From NCBI GenBank assembly GCA_001938485.1, contig MQRK01215724.1, positions 1 through 54,618 on the forward strand: a stretch of DNA of 54,618 nucleotides, given 5' to 3'. The translations under genes and the position numbers were made by a program. Positions within the stretch are counted from its first letter, which is position 1. Every line of letters starts with the position of its first letter. The notes beneath the pieces were generated by a model. That model searched no databases. It was not told where the DNA came from and saw nothing but the letters and a program-made list of their open reading frames with translations. Positions 9,087 to 50,639 of the stretch are shown one piece after another. Source of the stretch: Girardia tigrina (Eukaryota).

Positions 9087-9810
9087 ATGTTATTTAATTT
9101 GTGGTCTCCGACCTACTTTTTCCGATCGTTGTCTGTGTCATCTACTTATTTAAAATCTGGTAAATGCATCAACAGGCTAACAAACTTACTAAATAATAAT
9201 GGTTATTCAAAATCTTATATTGAAAGATTGATAAATGAAACTAATACTAAATTACTTGATAATTTTAAGAAAAATAATTGTGAGGTGAACTATAATTATT
9301 CACACCAATAATATTGATAAGGTTGGTCAATTAAATGAACGAAGAATAGGCTTTGTTCTAACTGATCCTTATTCAAAAGGATTTAAGAGATTTAAAAATT
9401 CTATTAAACGTTGTGATCCAAATAATTTACTGGGATTAAAGGTTGTTTCTCAAACATAAAAAGTTGAAACTATGTTTAGCAATAAATCTGTTACTCCGTT
9501 TGTCCTGTGTTCGGATTTAGTTTATCAATATTTTTGTAAAGGGTGTGATGCCACATATATTGCAGAGACGTCTCATCATCTCGGCAAACGAATCCAAGAA
9601 CACGGTCGAACTTATGGTATTAGTAATATTGCTGAACATAGAACGAAATGTAAAATTAATTTTGAGATAAATAATTTTACGGTTCTGTGTTCAAAATTTG
9701 CAACTTATTGGGAGAGAGTTGCATGTAGAGCTTTATTAATCAGGACCCACAATCTTAAAATAAATGTTCAAGCGACAATGTCAACCAATTTATTAAAAAT
9801 ATTTAATTAA
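9087..9810 (+). mobile_element. Penelope-like retroelement 3' fragment (RT thumb plus GIY-YIG endonuclease)
   Basis: LLNNNGYSKSYI followed by LVYQYFCKGCDATYIAETSHHLGKRIQEH...IAEH, the PLE GIY-YIG pattern with CCHH residues. Confidence 0.88.
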
Positions 9811-10039: not shown

Positions 10040-11110
10040 TTCTAAAGTATGACTAAGAATCTTGGTCTCAAGGAACAAAATGTGTTTTACCTCCAAAACC
10101 AACTAATTGTTCATCACACGTTATGTCACACTCAGGTACAAAGTATTTTCGCAAAACATTGTTGAATAGCATCCAGATTTCAGAAAAAGCAGCAAATTTA
10201 TCTGAAACAATCCGATCATTTCTTGTCAAAGTATTATCAAACCACATTGACTGCAATAAAAACTTGAATCGTTTACATGACATACAAGCCTTGAAAAAAG
10301 GTCGCCCTTCTTTATGATTCCACAACTCATTCAAAACTGTTCTATTATCTCGATCTTTACCAGCTCGTAATAAAATTCCAATTCCAGCCATCAGTTCATC
10401 AAATTTAAAATTAGCCATGTAGAGAGAAAAACAAATGTTAAAATGAGTAGAAAATTGGTGACATAGAATAGCTGCTTTTCTATTAATGTGCATGAGGATT
10501 GTACGTGCGATTTCTTCATGTAAAAACAGTGGAAATGAATGTAATGGAGAGCTCGTACTTACTAAAAATCTTGGACGTTGAGTGAGAATGATTCTATTTC
10601 TTCTTCGATCTGGAATTGGTTCTCTACGTAAATAACACCCACTTTCGAATGAATATCACTATGATAAGAAGATGAATTATGATCATCACTGCTTCTCTCA
10701 CTGTCTGATGATGATCATTCACTAAATAAATTTATCTCACCTTCATCACTGCCGACCTGTATTTCACCTTGTGGTAATACATGAGCCATTTGGCATTCCT
10801 CAATAGCCTCAACAGTGATATCACAATTGTCATCATTATGCTCTTCAAATTCCTCTGTAACTCCCAGAGAAATACAAGCATCTCTAAATGTCTTGCGAAC
10901 TGGACGTTGTGTGTTGTGAGCAATTGATTTTTGAGATAGTTGTTCAGTTTGATGTTGGCCAGGAGTATGTGATGGCTTTTTCTGTCTAAGTAAACCTCTA
11001 TCAACAGGTTGACCAGTTATGGGACTGCTTTTTCCAATTTTAAGTCTTTCTGTCAATGGTGGAGGCATTGGAAACTCCTCATTATCTGATTCATTGTCAA
11101 TTCATAATTG
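10040..11110 (-). mobile_element. piggyBac transposase remnant (truncated)
   Basis: MSCKRFKFLLQSMWFDN, DKFAAF and YFVPECDITCDEQLVGF follow an acidic N-terminal region; TTAA/TIR ends were not found. Confidence 0.85.
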
Positions 11111-26913: not shown

Positions 26914-26950
26914 NATATAGGGTTCTTGATCAAAAGAAGACATCATTAAC

Positions 26951-29030
26951 TGTTGGGACCAGTGAGTTTTTCCTTCACGTCAGCCTCGGGGCTATTCGTT
27001 GCACCGGCACCGAGGCAGGCGAAGGAAAAACTCCCTAAATCTAAAAAACGAAAAATAAAATATTATAATGATAATTTATAATTAATTAATTAAAAAAGAG
27101 AAACTTTAAATTGTTTTTGACCCTTTGATCCTGTCGATTTGAATATTTTCTTGTGAGAATTTGATGGCCTAATTTGCTGACGTGGGTTTGATTGGAATTT
27201 TGACCATCTCTGGGTTGTTTCTATCTGAGGACTGTTGACTTAGTGAAGGATGATTGAAGGTTGACTGTGAGAATTGTCTGCTTGCTGGTTCTGTGAGTTT
27301 TTGTGACGAAAGATTGGTATAAATTCATCCGAATTTGTGCACTTGATCAGACTTTTTTCTTTGAATAAATTTTATTTAAAAAAAATTGTTTTGTACTTAG
27401 GTAATTTTTGGATTTTATTTCCTTTTTTTGAACTTGATGCAGGTTGGGGATCATCCTCAAGGCTGCCGATCTGTTGATATATAACGGTAGGTGCTTATAG
27501 TTCCTGCCGAGACTATTGACGATCAGGTAGGGAATATGAACAGGTTGTGAGGTAATTTGATGACTGCTGATCTATTTTAATAGATTAACGGCAGGTGCTT
27601 ATAGTACCTGCCGAGACTATTGACGATCTGGAAGTTTGAGAAAGTCCTTGCCAAGTTTCATTTCTAGAAGAGAATTCGTTTCTCTCAGTCTCCACCAATT
27701 ATTTTTTTGTTTTTTTATTTTTATTTTTTTAATTTTTTTTAATCCACTCATCGTCCTTATTCAGCATGGATAGGAAATATAACGAAAACAAAGATCAACA
27801 AAGAGAACTGCTGCTGGGGTTGCAGAAATGGAAAGGCGAATGTGCCAATTTATATGACGAATTGACGAAGAGGACAACCGAATTTGAGGACTACAGAAAG
27901 CATTCAGTTCCTCTATCAAATCACAAACCGGTTGTGGATAAATATTTATTAGAACAACAGAAAATAAAGTCCTTGCAAAACGAGGTCACCGAGATGAGAA
28001 TTCTGCAAAATATATCCAGCTACTACAAGAAGGTGATCGAAAAGGTCTCAGAAGAGCAACCGGAAATAATTATAGAAACAGCAAGCAAGGTTGGATCAAA
28101 TACGGAAAAGAAGCCTCTGGTGACGAATCAGAACATTTATGGGTCAATTATGAAAGAGAATATGGCATCATCTTCCTCTGGGGTGCTCAGCAGATCTCAG
28201 AAGTGGCGGGAGCAGAGGAAGCGAAAGGCTCAAATGTTTCAACAGGCCAAGAATGAGCTGCAAGCTGTTTTTAAAACCAGTCGTATTGAGGTTGACATCC
28301 AAGATGGAAAGACGGTAATCAGAAATGACGCCAGTCAAAGAGAGTCTTCTGATTTTGATACCTCGCATCAAATTTCTTTGTTTTTTCCAACAAATAATTT
28401 CAAAGAGACTCTAGAACAACAAGAATGGCTGGACTTTAAATCAAGACTTGAAATTTAGAAGGAGAATCGTGACCGACTATAGTTCCGCTCTATCACAACT
28501 GATAAAGGTGAAGAGTTTGTCAATCTATCAGATTTGGATGATTAGGGACGATAGGTGGATTGCCTTTGATTAGCATTTTCTTTTGTTATATTTTAATAAA
28601 ACAATGTCAACATATAATTTGTTCATGTTCTTTTAACTTTAATCTCTCATATGAAAATGATAAACTCATAATAAGAAATATTATAATCAAATAAAAAAAC
28701 ATGTTGAGGAAAAAATAAGATAATCATTAACTAAATAGAAGTAGCATAAGCCAACTTTCATAGACTTAATATATTTAAATATAATGTAGAACCCAATAGG
28801 TACTTCATCAACTTCACTGGCGAGATAAAAGGGCCAGATAAGGTTGATATGGTACGATATGGATCTCTAATAAGTGTGAGTTAGAGGCACTTAGCGGAGA
28901 GACATATCTAAATAATATGTTTTGTCAAAATAAACTCAGATGTTAAGGCATACCATGAAACAAATAAATTTACATTAATAAAATTAAAATAATGATATAA
29001 AATCCAACACCAATAATATCACACCCAACA
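26951..29030. mobile_element. 2,080-bp TG...CA element (long solo LTR-like) with a 4-bp TSD and an internal ORF
   Basis: Termini TGTTGGG/CCCAACA, flanked by TAAC at 26947-26950 and 29031-29034. No direct repeat is shared by the two ends, and no gag/pol motifs are present. Confidence 0.72.
27766..28458 (+). CDS. Hypothetical 230-aa protein with N-terminal coiled-coil-like region and basic WREQRKRK patch
   Basis: Longest ORF in the window, with higher GC than the background. A T-rich tract and TTCAG acceptor lie directly before the ATG, and AATAAA is at about 28595. Confidence 0.65.
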   Translation: MDRKYNENKDQQRELLLGLQKWKGECANLYDELTKRTTEFEDYRKHSVPLSNHKPVVDKYLLEQQKIKSLQNEVTEMRILQNISSYYKKVIEKVSEEQPEIIIETASKVGSNTEKKPLVTNQNIYGSIMKENMASSSSGVLSRSQKWREQRKRKAQMFQQAKNELQAVFKTSRIEVDIQDGKTVIRNDASQRESSDFDTSHQISLFFPTNNFKETLEQQEWLDFKSRLEI

Positions 29031-29889
29031 TAACTCAAAATTTTATTTCTAACACAATTCAAGTTTTTTAAACAGACATGTCCGAGGAAATTTTGAATTT
29101 TCTTTTTTACACAAACCATTATGAATAAAAGTAAATAAAAAGATGGATATAGTTATTTCATTTATTAGGAATTTAAATTTACACTTTTTTTGTTAAAATT
29201 TTAAGGTTATTAAAATTTTTCACAAAGTTTTTTGTTGCATCTTTTATTAAATTTTCATAAATTTAATCGTTTCTGAATTACATTTCCCAATTCTATAATA
29301 CAACATTTTCATTTTGTTTTCATAATCATTTAAATATTATTTTTTAGATTCGATAACATAACGTTTTAAAGATAAAATTAAAATCGCAATTTTCGTTTGA
29401 TTTAAAAACTTTTAAATTACCCCTTGTTTAGATAAAATAAAATTATATTTTCAATAATAAGTACGTTTTTAGTTTAATTAAACAACTTTTAAATTACCTT
29501 CGCATCTTTTTAAAATAACTTTTAAAATAAAAGTTATATTGCTTAAAAAATTGAAAATTATATTTTGATTTAAAATTTATGAATAATTATCAAAAGTTAC
29601 GAAATAGTTTTATAGTTTATTTATTATTTCTCAAAAATTAAATTTTATGTTTCATAAAATTGCAATTCACTTTATTAATAAATATATTTAATGGTTTTAT
29701 GTTCACATTAAAAATTAATTTTATATAAATTACTTTTTTACGCTATTTTATAAAAATTTCATTTTAACCTAATCTGAAAAAAAGAAATGTAAAATATTTA
29801 ATTATTAAATTGATTAGATTTCAAATCCGAAATTTTATGAACTCAAAAAAGCTACTAACAATATATATATTTATATCTTTTTTATATTT

Positions 29890-30685
29890 TATCTCTGGTT
29901 TAACAAAAATCACACACGCTCCATGGGCAATCATAACTAAATACAGAACTAACACACGGCCTCGAATTTCTGAATATTTCAAGAAGATAATCTTTCATGA
30001 AATGAGCATTAAAAAGAGATTTTATATTAATATTTTATCAGTTGATCATCAAAGTTATGCCTTTTTAAATTTAAAGAATGTTTCCTTTAGTCTATTGGAG
30101 AAATGATTGTTGTATCTCAACAGAGGCTTTTTCGGTTTCTTCACCAAGAATAGCTGACCACCAACAAATTCCCGAAGCACGTACCCATACGATTGATCCC
30201 ATCTGTAGTTCCGTCGATATGTCATCACCGAATCGCATGAATAATCGATTTGTAACTAATCTATGACAACTGTCACCTTTAACCCGATTTTTGTCACTCT
30301 CCTTATCGATCGTGGATTTGACAGTCGATTTATTTTGCAGACACACGTTTGGTGCCATCATTTTAAATTCATTCTCCAAAATATCGCTTTTCAAAATTTT
30401 AATATCGATATTTTTGGAATTACGATGGACGAGTACGAGAAAAAAATTATTAGAACAGACATAGCAGTCCTTAACTGGTGGTAACGGTTTAACTGTCTGG
30501 ACAGTTTTGCCTCGCGCAGACACGAAGTCAGAAACCAATACGTCATAACATTTCTCCAACTGAACTTCGAATAACTTAATGATTTTAAATTGTTCATCGG
30601 TTATTATCGAAATCTTTAAACATTGAAGTAATTTCACGGCCGAATTAAACAGTTCGACAAACCGATAAATGATATTCGCATTCAT
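29890..30685 (-). pseudogene. PWWP-domain-like gene or pseudogene
   Basis: The 197-aa ORF ends with LQMGSIVWVRASGICWWSAIL, resembling the PWWP signature G.LVW.K..G.PWWPA. A possible downstream exon (RGRVLVLYL/YDCPWSV) needs a frameshift. Confidence 0.5.
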
Positions 30686-31299
30686 TCTCTCAAAGGGATT
30701 TTTCCTTTTTTTTAATTAAATTAGCATTAAGTAACATGATGCAATCCTTTTCGACAAAAAACTTTTTCAAGTTAATCCATCAATATCGAGTTTTCAACAA
30801 TAAATTAAAAATTGACTTTTAAACAATGACACAATTTTTTTTATTTAATCGATCAATATCGAAATTCCAATATTACATAAATTTTCCACTTGCAGAAAAC
30901 ACTGCTCATCGAAATTGAAAAATTGTGAATTGTAAACAAACAAAAAAAACCAGTTTGGGAACTATAGAACAAATTATTTGCAATGAGATTGTGAGTATGA
31001 ATAGTTATGTAATCAATATTGTTTGTTACTAACAGAAGTAACTAAGATTAATTGCGTAATAATTATTGAGTGATTGCTGATTAAATTGATTGTGTAAAGT
31101 CAGTTGTGATGACACAATAATATGGGTTACTTGAATGTATGCTGAATGTATGTTGATAGTATATGTTTGTTTGAGAGTGTAAATCAATGAAAAGGCTTTG
31201 AAAATGTGAGTCATTATAACATCACTCTTTTCCCCATTAAATAGTTGAGATTATTGATATTGTGTTATAGTTAATAAATCATATAATCGGAATTTGTTA

Positions 31300-37421: not shown

Positions 37422-39332
37422 ATGAAAATTATAATATTTTTAATATTAATTGCTACAAATACTTCAGTTGCATATAACTGTTATTCTCTGAGAAAATCAA
37501 CAATAATAAGTAAATATGAAAAGTATTTTCGAAGTATGTGGTCAAATCAAAGTAGCATAATTACTATTAAAGACATCAATATGATTTTTCAAACATTTAT
37601 TAACACCACAATCAGAATTGTTATGACAACCATGTCAAACTCGCGGCCCGCAATGGTTTTAAAATTTTAACAAATTTTTAAAATTTTCTAAAAAAAATAT
37701 ATTTTAAAAATCAAATTTATTGAAAAAATAAAAACAAATCTTCGTGAAAATTTATACGAGGGCATTTCTATGTATTTTTCAGATCAACAATTATTAAATT
37801 TAAATAGTTAGGAAATTTGTTTAAATATTATTGTTTTTTTATTTTTTTGAATTTTATTAGGTCTAATTTGAGCAGTTTTTTTCATAAATATTAATTTTAA
37901 TCCGGTAATTTTTGTTAGTATTTTCTTTCTTAAGACAGAATATGCATTTTTCTTTAATATTACAATATTAAAGCCCTTCAATTTGTAGATTAAGCCAAAT
38001 ACGAGTAAAAAATGATCGATTGAAAGTGAACATCGTTGCTTTCAAGAAAAATGGGAAATTAAATATTTTTTCATTCAAGAAAAAGGTAAAATTTTCTGCT
38101 TCATATGTCGACAAACTATTTTGGTGTGCAAGAAATATAATATCAAAAGGCATCACAATACCTTCTATAATGAAGAATATAAAAATATTGTTGGAAAAAT
38201 GCGTGAGGAAAAGTTTATCGAATTAAAAGCAGTTCTTCGTAAACAACAAAGCATTTTCACTAAACCAGTTGCAGAAAATGTGGCCGCCGTAACAGCTAGT
38301 TATCGGTTATCGCATGTAATTGCAAAAAAATCAAAATCATTTATGGAAGGCGATTTCATCAGTGAATAATAGCAGCTGAAGAGTTATGCCCCCATATGAT
38401 AAATAAATTTATAAGCATTAGTTTATCCCGAAATACAGTTGCGAATAGAATCACTGACATTGCTTCAAATTTAAGAGACCAACTTCGCTCATTGGCATTA
38501 AATTTTGAAGTGTTTTCAATTGCAATCGATGAGAGTACTGATTTAACAGATATAGCACAGTTAGCCGTTTTTATTCGAGGATGTGATCGGAATATGACAA
38601 TAACCGAAGAGCTATTAGAAGTAATTACAATGCATGGTACAACAACTGGAGATGATATTTTCGATGCACTTATGATTGCTATTAAAAAATATAATCTTCC
38701 AATGAATAACTTGGTATCTTTGGCAACAGATGGGGCCCCTTCTATGACTGGAGTTACACGTGGTGTCGTTGGTAGACTAAAAGCTTATGTTAAAACCCAT
38801 CATAATAAATCTGTTCAACACTTCCATTGTATTATCCACCAGCCAGTCTTATGCTCAAAAGTAATTGAAATTGATAATGTATTTAAAACAGTTGCTAAAG
38901 TTGTACCAATTTTATACCAAATTTTGATGATTTGAAAAATGAGAAGCGGTGCATTATATTCAGCAAAAAATAAATGATATTCTTTTTTATTAATAAATAT
39001 GTTTCTATAAAAAATTTTTTGTTTTCTTTATGGTAAATTTATATTCAATTAACACTCAAAATTTGAATTTTTAATAAACCTAAGTAGATGTGGCCCGCAA
39101 AAATATTTTGAAGACAATTTTCGATGAATTTGGCCCGTATACCGAAATGAGTTTCACATGCCTGTGTTATGATAACAATTATTCAAAAGACTTTCGCTAT
39201 TTGACATTTTCTCAATTAATATTTTTTTTAATTCAAACTAATTTTTCAATAAATGAAAAAGTTTTAATATCAATTATTAATTATAAAGATTTTAATTGGT
39301 TAAAATTAAATCTAAACATTTTAAAAAAGTAA
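37422..39332 (+). pseudogene. Putative secreted-protein gene disrupted by the hAT insertion
   Basis: Signal-peptide-like start MKIIIFLILIATNTSVA. Coding-like sequence resumes after the TSD (CYDNNYSKDFRY...) in a shifted frame. Confidence 0.4.
37627..39164 (+). mobile_element. hAT (Buster/SPIN, GTF2IRD2-like) transposon, internally deleted
   Basis: TIRs CAACCATGTCAAACT / AGTTTCACATGCCTG; perfect 8-bp TSD TGTTATGA (37619-37626 and 39165-39172). Motifs: KYNIKRHH, LSRNTVANRI, FSIAIDESTD..AQLAVFIR, TDGAPSM, HCIIHQ. Confidence 0.95.
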
Positions 39333-48161: not shown

Positions 48162-48170
48162 TTTTAAATA

Positions 48171-49452
48171 TTAGGGTGAACCAAAAGTCTTTTCGTATTT
48201 TTTATTAAAAATTTAAACATAATTTTACAACAAATAAAAAAACATTTAAGTTTCAAAGTAAAGACCATTTGAATCTATAGCTTGAAGCCATCTATGGGCA
48301 AGTTGTGCGATCCCACTGCGGTACCAATTCTTGTTCTTAGAAGCGAAGAACTGGTGACACCTGTTTTCGACCTCGGCCAGATTATTGAAGCTGCAACCAC
48401 GAAGAAAGTGTGCCATAGACCGGAAAAGGTAATAGTCTGATGGCGCAAGATCCGGACTATACGCTGGGTGTGGAAGAAGTTCAAAGGCATCGAGTGTTTT
48501 GAATTTTTTCCTTTGTTTGTTTGGCGGTGTGCAGTTTAGCATTGTCCTGTTGGAGAAGAACTCACTTTCGATTGATCAAATCGGGGTATTTCTCGCCAAG
48601 TGCCGCATACATTCGATCAAGTTGGGCGCAGTAAAGGTCAGCGTCGATGGCACGACCATTTGGAACCAGCTCGAAGTTCCTTTGAAGTTCCACCAAACAC
48701 ACAAAAGTGCCTTCCTTGAGAAACGATATCGTTTCGCTACCGGTTTCGCCATTTGTCCAGGGTCCAACCATTGATTTTATTGGTCTGGATTACTGAAGTA
48801 AACCCACTTTTCAACGCAAGTTACAATTTGACGGGTGAAACGGTCATCGCGCGGATTTTCAAGCAATTTTTGATAAGTTTCGAAACGCTTTTCGGTTTGA
48901 ATTTGTGTCAATTCATGAGGCACTTCTCGACATCGTCTATTGACCTTGCCAAGAGCGTGAAGGTGTCGTACAATGGATGTTTGAGGATTATCGAGTTCGA
49001 CCGACAATCTGCGAGTACTTATTGAAGGATTTGTCACGACGGCTTCACGAATTGCTCCGAAATGTACGGTGATAGGTCGGCCTGAACGTGCATTGTCTCC
49101 GAGGTCAATGTCGCCTTCGTTGAACCATTTGAACCAATTTTGTGCAGTACGATTTGAGACCACATTATCGCCTTCAACTTCACATATCTTCTTTGTTGCT
49201 GCAGTTGCGTTTAAGCCCTGTTTCCAGTAAAGGCGTAAAAGAACACGAATTTCAAAATTTTCCATGATTTTTCTAAAATACCATAAAAATTATATTAACG
49301 ATTTATTAGAAGTTTTAATATTTATTGTGATAGAGCAGTTTAAGAGCTTTAAAAACATATAACACATGTATATAAAATATCTTTATTTGGTAATAACAAA
49401 CAATTGAACAAAAAGACGTAGAAAATACGAAAAGACTTTTGGTTCACCCTAA
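48171..49452 (-). mobile_element. Full-length (1,282 bp) mariner element B, transposase broken by stop and frameshifts
   Basis: Perfect 31-bp TIR TTAGGGTGAACCAAAAGTCTTTTCGTATTTT with TA TSD; motifs EVPHEL, IVTCVEKW, LLCVWWN and HPAYSPDLAPSDYYLF. Confidence 0.97.
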
Positions 49453-50639
49453 TATTTCACATAATGAATATTAAATACATTAAAAACGACATTTCTTTTG
49501 CATCAACCTAATATGAAGGACATTTATGTAATTTTCTAAATTCACTCGTTTATTCAACTATTTATGAAGCTCGATCTTTTGAAAAGTAGCCCCAAACAAT
49601 TATTTATTTAAAAAATATATTTTTGGTGCTTTGTAGTAAGATGTATCAAAAATATTTAGTCTAATTTATCTAACAAATCTGGAAATTACATTTACCTTAG
49701 CTTATCGAATTTCAGGCCATCCGCGAACGTGCTAATAGGTTTTAAAGATTTTTGGATAAAAATACTTAGATTATATTTTGAATTTCTCGTTTTACGTATA
49801 TTGTTTATGATTCTCCAACATTTGTTAAAATGTTTTTAAAAAGATTTCTTTTTAAATTAAAATATTCTTTCTCTTTCTGTGTTAGATTGGGAAATTATAA
49901 CATATTTTTTATAATTTGTTTTAATTTTTTCAATACCATTAAATCATTATGCCCGATATGTCGAAATAATTCATTAGGGACAGACAGAGTTTGATGATAT
50001 ATACGACTACATTTCCTGTCTTTATAATGGGATAAAAAGAATATTAGAATATTAAAGGAATAATCTAGTTAAGTAATCATAAGGGTGATCGCTTTTGTCT
50101 GGTGAGTTTTGTTGGAATACAGTATGTTAATACACGATTCATTCTGTCAATGTTTAAAGATCTACATCCCTTTTAATAATTAATGAAATTTTGAATTACT
50201 TAAGTAATCGAAAGCATTAATGAATTATACAAATTTTAATTTGCATTATAAAAATTATGTTGTGATATGAGATGAAAGAACATGGCGAGGAGGTTCTATG
50301 ATGAAGAAGAACATCAATTAGTTCCCATTTCATCTGGAATGGCATATGGAATCTGAGTTTTTATCAATTTTCTACGGGTAGATATTGAGCATTCTCACTT
50401 CTGAACCGAGAAGGATTTTGAAAGATATTATAAATAAGATTAAATATTTATTGCACACAAAAATGTTTCCTAAATTATTTAACTGAAAGGGCATTTTTTT
50501 TCTCGTCGTTGTTTTTTATTGAATTGTAATTACTGTAATATAATACTTATGATTGAAAAATGTTGTTATTTGAAATTAAAATTTCAAAACTACTTTTAAT
50601 ATTTCTTTCTATATTTTAAAATATTATTGTTACCATAAG

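Follow-up and report, generated by a model that had tools for sequence, protein, structure and literature searches.

Solo LTR and its genomic copies

In a 54,618-nt stretch of Girardia tigrina DNA (contig MQRK01215724.1, hereafter the window), a segment of 2,080 bp at 26951..29030 (plus strand, as are all features below) starts with TGTTGGG, ends with CCCAACA and encloses a reading frame. Is it a solitary long terminal repeat (LTR) that carries a gene of its own, or a non-autonomous gene cassette mobilized by an integrase? The original prediction, made from the sequence, put forward both. Most of the features on which it drew are present: the two termini, an exact 4-bp target-site duplication (TSD), TAAC, at 26947..26950 and 29031..29034, recognized from the sequence and from genome copies, and an interior free of gag, pol or transposase (0 families found by Pfam). 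The likeness it saw to the termini of neighbouring solo LTRs is not borne out, with TGTTGGG occurring once and CCCAACA twice in the window.

Within the window, the combination of inverted termini and TSD is at chance level, with 12 TG..CA pairs that have a 7-bp terminal inverted repeat (TIR) and a 4-bp TSD against a mean of 9.5 and a maximum of 15 in shuffled sequence (n = 20). Genome-wide copies were therefore the decisive test. A DNA search (40 scored of 3,519 first-look candidates) returned copies at 88–94% identity, most of which end at the ends of the element itself, and the exact 16-base start motif of the LTR occurs 712 times in the genome compared with 0 for the control. Among 30 loci examined, window included, perfect 4-bp TSDs flank 13 of the 18 two-ended copies of the same subfamily (A), and all 13 differ, as the original prediction would have it. 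The recurring ends and the 712 start motifs contradict the notion of a single-copy sequence with boundaries not reproduced elsewhere. TGTTGGG starts with 4-bp TSDs were also found in two related subfamilies, at 8 of 30 loci in B and 12 of 30 in D; subfamily C is represented by one gapped locus and the protein P0006, and its 3′ end lies off its contig. Shared by A, B, and C is a long GC-rich hairpin at the LTR start, in the predicted U3 (26961..27036; z = −6.0, with equal stability in 0 of 200 shuffles), which belongs to no Rfam family, as Rfam gave no credible match.

Parent element

Copies elsewhere in the genome link the LTR to a retroelement interior. An LTR end followed by a primer-binding-site (PBS) motif, with a spacer of 9–10 nt, was found at 24 genome junctions (control 0), 21 of them from the present LTR family and three from another. 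The PBS motif is presumably complementary to tRNA-Lys. The reading frame ahead of the junction is of A type in eight cases and of B type in three; a search for D LTRs joined to the PBS gave 0 matches, leaving D without a PBS link. Downstream of the PBS lies a leader of ~3 kb with 60-bp tandem repeats and then gag, an order seen at L091, L092, and L097 and supported in Pfam by zf-CCHC and by Retrotrans_gag, the latter falling slightly short of its cut-off (E 1e-4). At four loci (L092, L179, L182, and L184) gag stands upstream of env, and the ~2.6 kb of coding sequence between the two matches no Pfam family. The env glycoprotein matches Monjiviricetes_fusion (PF24664, E 3e-40) and lies directly upstream of protease (PR) at eight loci; a class III/gB-like env between gag and pol is a feature of gB-type errantiviruses. 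The order within pol is PR, a dUTPase-like stretch (weak, E 0.035), reverse transcriptase (RT), RNase H (RH), and integrase (INT), recognized by the Pfam protease, RVT_1, RNase H, and rve families; PR-RT-RNase H-integrase is the Ty3/gypsy (Metaviridae) order. The series env-PR-RT-RH-INT was observed at L175, L184/185, L187/188, and L189, and at L175 an LTR starts 1.4 kb after the integrase region.

The assembly is fragmented, and the passages from 5′ LTR to pol (L092/L109) and from pol to 3′ LTR (L175) lie on separate contigs. No contig holds both LTRs and the whole interior, so that the gene order was pieced together from overlapping copies, which sum to an element of ~18 kb. The gag-pol linkage with PBS and polypurine tract expected of paired copies was thus found for PBS, gag, and pol and not for the polypurine tract: both 3′ junctions seen (L175 and L199) have a C-rich run instead, and a purine-tract pattern search yielded one locus without a link to the interior and no true 3′ LTR. 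The missing tract weakens the label “canonical” and leaves the status as an LTR unaffected. Copy ends, PBS/gag junctions, and pol junctions together identify 26951..29030, with near certainty, as a solo LTR of subfamily A from a GAG-ENV-POL Ty3/gypsy errantivirus.

An intron within the LTR

A 364-nt GT-AG intron (27401..27764) occupies the 5′ untranslated region of the LTR gene. LTR bases 451–814, bounded by the AG|GT donor and the CAG acceptor, are exactly missing from two genomic copies, and a junction-pattern search returned six further matches that represent three insertions, making five independent intron-less insertions in total. For a GT-AG segment to be lost exactly from DNA, the element RNA must have been spliced ahead of reverse transcription. 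Because the loss is this precise in five independent genomic copies, the intron is real, and it is spliced from RNA that is later reverse-transcribed. Both termini, together with perfect TSDs, are present in L053 and L274, two of the intron-less copies. In a tree of unassessed branch support that omitted L274 as too short, the other four fall at four places, with nearest neighbours that bear the intron and are 4–6% away. Among A copies the donor is identical in 33 of 43 and the acceptor in 38 of 47. Both splice sites had been singled out beforehand: the donor AG|GTAATT at 27400/27401 is the one used in the intron-less copies, and the T-tract with CAG ends at 27764, a single base away from the ATG (27766).

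No intron-less copies occur among 30 B and 30 D loci. Assembled RNA contigs from four runs cover the LTR, and none of the 13 joints listed matches the intron, a result that is weak either way. One RNA contig crosses the donor unspliced, and DNA may be present. These data consist of contigs only, which are blind to transcript starts, ends, strand, and level, their reads are cut at the T-tract, and runs with small word shares were excluded.

A predicted transcription unit

The LTR appears to hold the signals of a small gene on either side of this intron. A TATA box at 27318..27323 is the predicted core promoter; the two commonest 9-mers at this site contain TATAAA in 39 of 44 A copies, TATAAA is present in 15 of 15 B copies, and in all four subfamilies, A to D, a TATA-like motif precedes the donor by 75–86 nt. 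It is followed by an initiator-like TCAGA and a predicted 52-nt non-coding exon 1 without ATG (27347..27400), for which the start site is placed at the A of TCAGA (27349, TATA+31). The initiator-like motif near +30 is clear in A and C and variable in B and D. The stretch from TATA or initiator to the donor lacks an ATG in A, B, and D, the ATG of the reading frame lies 1–11 nt past the acceptor, and the order TATA, donor, acceptor is conserved in A–D.

At the other end, the AATAAA that had been noted downstream of the reading frame is found at 28595 and is followed by a GU-rich downstream element (28595..28634), with a predicted poly(A) site near 28615 that would form the R/U5 boundary. Among A copies, 42 of 46 have this AATAAA; it is less fixed in B (16 of 25) and in D (13 of 25). 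In A, C, and D the hexamer lies ~45–52 nt after the stop codon. A GU-rich element follows it in both A and D, and the 3′ homology between A and B begins at 28618, that is, at this first AATAAA/poly(A) region.

Transcription probably starts ~30 nt past the TATA box and ends near 28615, which would make the solo LTR a complete small gene. The simplest reading of the layout would be a U3 of ~400 nt, an R of ~1.27 kb that contains intron and reading frame, and a U5 of ~410 nt. An R of 1.27 kb would be far longer than those known from retroviruses, which counts against such a layout. Faithful copying of the provirus would in that case need retention of the intron and read-through of the 5′ poly(A) site, and the rarity of intron-less copies fits the required retention.

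Selection on the LTR gene and decay of the window copy

The reading frame of the family spans 27766..28545 (259 codons plus stop) and encodes a protein of 258–259 aa. The open frame of 230 codons first described is indeed there, extending to 28458 (230 aa), but it is not intact, because in-frame stops at codons 231 and 239 cut the family frame short. The window copy has therefore already decayed, and the view that it stayed open while all else was broken fails on these two premature stops. The stop at codon 231 is present in only 3 of 47 copies.

A protein search (150 scored of 3,053 candidates) recovered relatives at 81–100% identity. Of 50 distinct A copies, 46 are full-length, comprising 13 open, 27 with stops, and six frameshifted, in a sample that consists of the best matches to the window protein and so favours intact copies. 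Variants found in single A copies (313 non-synonymous, 114 synonymous, and 29 stop) have a dN/dS of 0.86, which is neutral. Variants present in at least four copies (37 non-synonymous, 40 synonymous, and three stop) have a dN/dS of 0.29. For comparison, four other frames give 0.86–1.55, and the antisense frame with mirrored third positions gives 0.36. The comparison across copies proposed at the outset thus yields a signal of constraint. Subfamily B has only 11 shared variants (dN/dS 0.57), too few to judge. The four LTR subfamilies carry versions of the frame at 36–49% amino-acid identity, and between them pS is 0.77–0.96 (saturated) against a pN of 0.34–0.43 in a set of intact copies (13 A, three B, and two D) and one partial C. 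The frame is under purifying selection and is a real gene.

The LTR flanks of A and B are 83% and 89% identical. Because saturated frames sit in flanks this similar, old alleles of the gene appear to have been swapped between LTR backbones. The frame is still present in 19 of 22 LTR starts with >1.1 kb downstream (13 A, five B, and one C). These belong to 40 sampled loci, drawn from the first 100 start motifs on the list apart from one that the purine-tract search supplied. An accessory gene within an LTR that survives solo-LTR formation, as the original prediction had it, is thereby strongly supported by the linkage to PBS and gag, by selection, and by the intron-less copies.

The protein has no identified relatives beyond these LTRs: all eight database relatives belong to subfamilies A–D, and no outside relative was found by Pfam, among PDB sequences (best E 0.11), or in a search of limited power for longer or fused forms, with remote homologues possible. 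Foldseek gave no match at E ≤ 0.001 for a low-confidence model (pLDDT 54), the best ESM Atlas value of 0.82 is below the useful range, and comparison with the internal frames of the element itself showed no likeness (best E 0.17). With 0 Pfam families and no known family matched, the frame is recognizable neither as gag nor as a host gene. One relative, P0002, bears the name “sucrose-6-phosphate hydrolase”; we rejected this name, as P0002 has no Pfam match and is 85% identical to the LTR protein.

Predicted features of the protein

The LTR protein is predicted to form a coiled-coil dimer. Codons 7–93 (27784..28044) correspond to a predicted parallel coiled-coil dimerization region, based on helices in the monomer model and on a homodimer prediction. 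For residues 7–93 of a sister protein the latter scored 0.56, compared with 0.16 for the best of three controls, at a contact agreement of at least 75% and a pLDDT of at least 66. In tests on eukaryotes, 17 of 29 solved homo-pairs and 0 of 30 single chains attain this mark; the numbers are low, and coiled coils might attain it through resemblance. The monomer model is helical and of low confidence (mean pLDDT 53.7). An Arg/Lys-rich helix (28189..28233) contains EQRKRK, which is invariant in 37 family proteins. A C-terminal block with a hydrophobic core and a Ser/acid tail (28483..28542), behind the stops in the window copy, is among the best-conserved parts across A–D, and we take this tail to be like a SUMO-interacting motif (SIM) or an LIR. 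No transmembrane stretch was detected in the LTR protein, and a leucine-rich export-like motif, by a simple pattern, occurs in two of four subfamily proteins at differing places. The role as a regulator or anti-silencing factor put forward in the original prediction is plausible.

Intronic hairpins

The intron contains rod-like hairpin units of ~70 nt. Unit 1 (27463..27530, z = −3.8) has a purine-rich internal loop and is a candidate response element; unit 2 (27563..27635, z = −6.1) coincides with direct repeat D19. Their number per intron ranges from one to three: C and D have a single unit, A usually has two, and B has as many as three. The structure is kept across A–D, all eight units that were folded have z between −3.8 and −8.7, and the hairpins are the only upstream DNA detectably common to D and the other subfamilies. 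Pairing is preserved in 92.6% of 980 cells (35 of 116 units), with changes that are mostly one-sided G-U. Of the two strands, the sense strand gives the better fold in 114 of 116 units, which is partly expected from its G/T skew. Covariation is weak: double changes were seen in 4 of 28 pairs, and 365 of 500 shuffles reach the count and 41 of 500 the covariation score. An inverted repeat could also serve as a site in DNA, which speaks against an RNA reading.

A possible regulatory circuit and its alternatives

We hypothesize, tentatively and at somewhat less than even confidence, that the dimeric Arg/Lys-rich LTR protein acts on the hairpins of its own intron to move expression away from the short, spliced mRNA and towards full-length, unspliced RNA. 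The spliced short LTR mRNA would encode the regulator and would lose the hairpin response element along with the intron. The putative RNA-binding Arg/Lys helix of the dimer would recognize the intronic hairpins, and the bound regulator may hold back splicing, polyadenylation in the 5′ LTR, or both. It would further promote export of the intron-retaining genomic RNA, and the genome would keep the response element, following the logic of Rev, Rex, and Rec. We favour such a Rev/Rex-like switch because it alone joins the retained intron, the intronic hairpins, the basic helix, and the dimer. The broader proposal, that a Ty3/gypsy errantivirus independently evolved a feedback circuit in the style of complex retroviruses wholly within its LTR, with solo LTRs acting in trans on proviruses and alleles being swapped among them, we hold to be doubtful.

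With the same gene anatomy, the protein could instead be a nuclear anti-silencing factor, with the basic helix as nuclear localization signal and a SUMO-interacting tail that decoys the SUMO-dependent heterochromatin machinery. The strong conservation of the C-terminal block in A–D would agree with this, and cassette exchange, as suggested by saturated alleles in similar A and B flanks, would suit a host conflict. The SIM likeness, however, depends on the consensus motif, the core also fits an LIR-type F/Y-x-x-L in A–C, and D is without the fourth hydrophobic residue. There is precedent in Daxx, where repression is described as acting through a C-terminal SIM with acidic, CK2-phosphorylated residues bordering its hydrophobic core (PMC12295420). 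A search for host SUMO was negative, Pfam giving ubiquitin-like matches (7 of 8 loci translated) and the motif pattern 0. The conserved intronic hairpins would be left unexplained, and we consider this reading, the main rival of the switch, unlikely. A DNA-binding transactivator with the logic of foamy Tas or HTLV Tax would make the one to three repeat units palindromic enhancer sites in DNA, matching a coiled-coil dimer with a basic helix and a unit number that varies between subfamilies in the manner of LTR enhancers. Yet most substitutions are of a kind that leaves G-U pairing intact in the sense strand alone, the units are situated within a spliced intron, past the predicted start, and the basic helix follows ~50 residues C-terminal to the coiled coil, an arrangement unlike that of bZIP proteins. 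A transactivator of this kind seems improbable.

In MMTV-sag-like fashion the frame might lie in U3 and be expressed from its own U3 promoter or a subgenomic spliced RNA, with the genomic start past it, a short R, and the function left open. In MMTV the LTR is reported to contain two promoters and to encode accessory factors (PMC2723071). Intron-less copies would likewise result from splicing in the 3′ U3, and four further AATAAA hexamers lie downstream. This layout nonetheless has little chance, since TATA(A/T)A is absent between LTR positions 530 and 2045 and the first AATAAA is followed by a GU-rich downstream element and stands where the 3′ homology of A and B sets in. Finally, the segment could be a Ginger-like or other non-autonomous TIR cassette, or a passively carried host-gene fragment without a role in the element. 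Solitary copies with 4-bp TSDs predominate (712 start motifs versus 21 PBS junctions), singleton variants accumulate neutrally, and only 13 of the 46 full-length A copies are open, all of which would fit such a reading. The same ends, however, precede PBS and gag and follow pol elsewhere in the genome, junctions that largely refute the integrase-mobilized cassette of the original prediction. Purifying selection on shared variants and between subfamilies, and the confinement of 8 of 8 database relatives to four LTR subfamilies, with no likeness to the internal frames of the element, also stand against it, and we regard it as very improbable indeed.

Relation to known elements

GAG-ENV-POL Ty3/gypsy errantiviruses of the HSV/gB type are known from Platyhelminthes, Nematoda, and Bryozoa (PMC13524379). 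The present element is like them in gag-env-pol order, a class III-type glycoprotein (PF24664), PR-RT-RH-INT, and a PBS near the LTR end, and its env resembles, by eye and unaligned, the printed env row of Smed_errantivirus_1 from S. mediterranea, a likeness that makes a planarian host likely. As described there, the LTR search extended 3 kb beyond gag at 5–14 kb spacing and >99% identity, and no LTR was called for eight of nine flatworm entries; it likely would miss a 2.1-kb LTR behind a ~3-kb leader. The main text of that study contains no “accessory”, “splic”, or “solo”, and “intron” appears in a reference only. Troyka elements have CG..CG ends and a 3-bp TSD (PMC12440569). They were ruled out here by TG..CA ends and a TSD of 4 bp. 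Giant LTR elements are reportedly described in the main planarian genome papers.

Protein genes inside or overlapping the LTR, such as HIV nef and foamy bel, are familiar from vertebrate retroviruses, MMTV included, where the reading frame lies in U3. Those of MMTV are the LTR-encoded accessory genes sag and Naf (PMC2723071). The present gene resembles all of these in its position and in a spliced message. In contrast to them it belongs to a Ty3/gypsy element, has no sequence likeness and no transmembrane segment, is predicted to lie in R, and would have promoter, intron, and poly(A) site all within the LTR. Bdelloid rotifer LTR retrotransposons carry family-specific non-env ORF3s, some of them coiled-coil, with spliced messages (PMC5408684). 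These too are extra orphan frames in Ty3/gypsy-like elements with spliced expression, but as described they are apparently internal beside gag and pol and would be lost on solo-LTR formation, whereas the present one lies within the LTR.

In the Rev/RRE, Rex/RxRE, and Rec/RcRE systems an oligomeric Arg-rich protein made from spliced mRNA is paired with a structured element in unspliced RNA. Rem and RmRE form such a regulator-response-element pair in MMTV (PMC2723071). The likeness of our system to Rev, Rex, Rec, and Rem is one of proposed logic alone: no homology was found by Pfam, PDB sequence, or Foldseek, the LTR protein is ~258 aa with no consistent export signal, and its binding is putative. 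To our knowledge, no protein-plus-RNA-element control of unspliced RNA is known in Ty3/gypsy elements, and a literature search on such control returned a foamy-virus review as its sole result. Further searching of the openly accessible literature turned up no description of a Ty3/gypsy LTR that contains a gene with an intron. Against the sources considered, the parent type (PMC13524379), LTR accessory genes (MMTV), and rotifer spliced ORF3s are known, and an intron-containing gene within a Ty3/gypsy LTR appears to be new.

Implications

Solo-LTR formation is normally a disarming of the LTR element by its host, after which promoter DNA alone remains. Here the remnant retains a whole gene, so that recombination multiplies a coding unit. 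We predict long, coding LTRs for those published flatworm errantiviruses in which none was called. A single protein with a single 70-nt hairpin provides a compact candidate pair for the balance of spliced and genomic RNA in errantiviruses. If the proposed circuit is true, an R of ~1.3 kb would encode a spliced Rev/Tat-like regulator together with its intronic hairpin response elements, and each fresh solo LTR, of hundreds, would be a free-standing gene that acts in trans on all proviral copies.

LTR hairpin and element interior

Near its 5' end (window positions 26961-27036), the LTR is predicted to fold into a hairpin of very high stability (z -6.0), which is retained in LTR subfamilies A-C and missing in D. 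In proviral copies, the leader between the site where the tRNA primer binds (PBS) and gag is ~3 kb long and includes 60-bp tandem repeats (locus L091, 3742-4064, and related leaders). There are at least two leader types, each of which occurs downstream of both A and B LTRs. In one copy (L182, 5657-8301), the zinc knuckles of gag are separated from the start of env by a coding stretch of ~2.6 kb that returned no significant match in a Pfam search and possibly encodes additional accessory domains.

A second LTR family (L070, L080, L082, and L107) has terminal nine bases and a PBS motif identical to those of the main family, with an Asn-rich gag-like frame downstream. At three other loci (L101, L096, and L098), the LTR end and PBS are followed, immediately or past a ~300 bp leader, by host-like coding sequence, recognized by eye in L101 as laminin-type EGF repeats. 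These loci may represent truncated proviruses or inserted processed transcripts.

Related and neighboring coding sequences

The LTR-encoded protein is also present in public metagenome-type collections (P0002 cluster), where one entry carries the misnomer sucrose-6-phosphate hydrolase. These occurrences likely derive from animal DNA within the samples. Ubiquitin-like coding stretches are extremely numerous genome-wide and often sit within longer frames (150 of 2,210 candidates scored; examples at L231-L238).

Elsewhere in the window, a minus-strand stop-to-stop frame of 207 codons (30092-30715) ends in a PWWP-like motif identified by eye; a Pfam search of this frame gave no significant match. 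Broken transposons are represented by a weak GIY-YIG fragment (9460-9810), DDE_Tnp_1_7 (10068-10655) and DUF4371 (38366-38935) fragments, and a mariner-type element with 39-bp inverted ends (48166-49457); a tandem array of a 25-bp unit (47-390) is grouped with them.

LTR junctions

Directly 5' of the 3' LTR, both L199 and L175 (minus strand, where the junction lies at 1822) have a C-rich run and no polypurine tract, and the PBS is offset from the LTR end by 9-10 nt (L067-L090). The parent element's plus-strand priming and end processing appear to be non-canonical.
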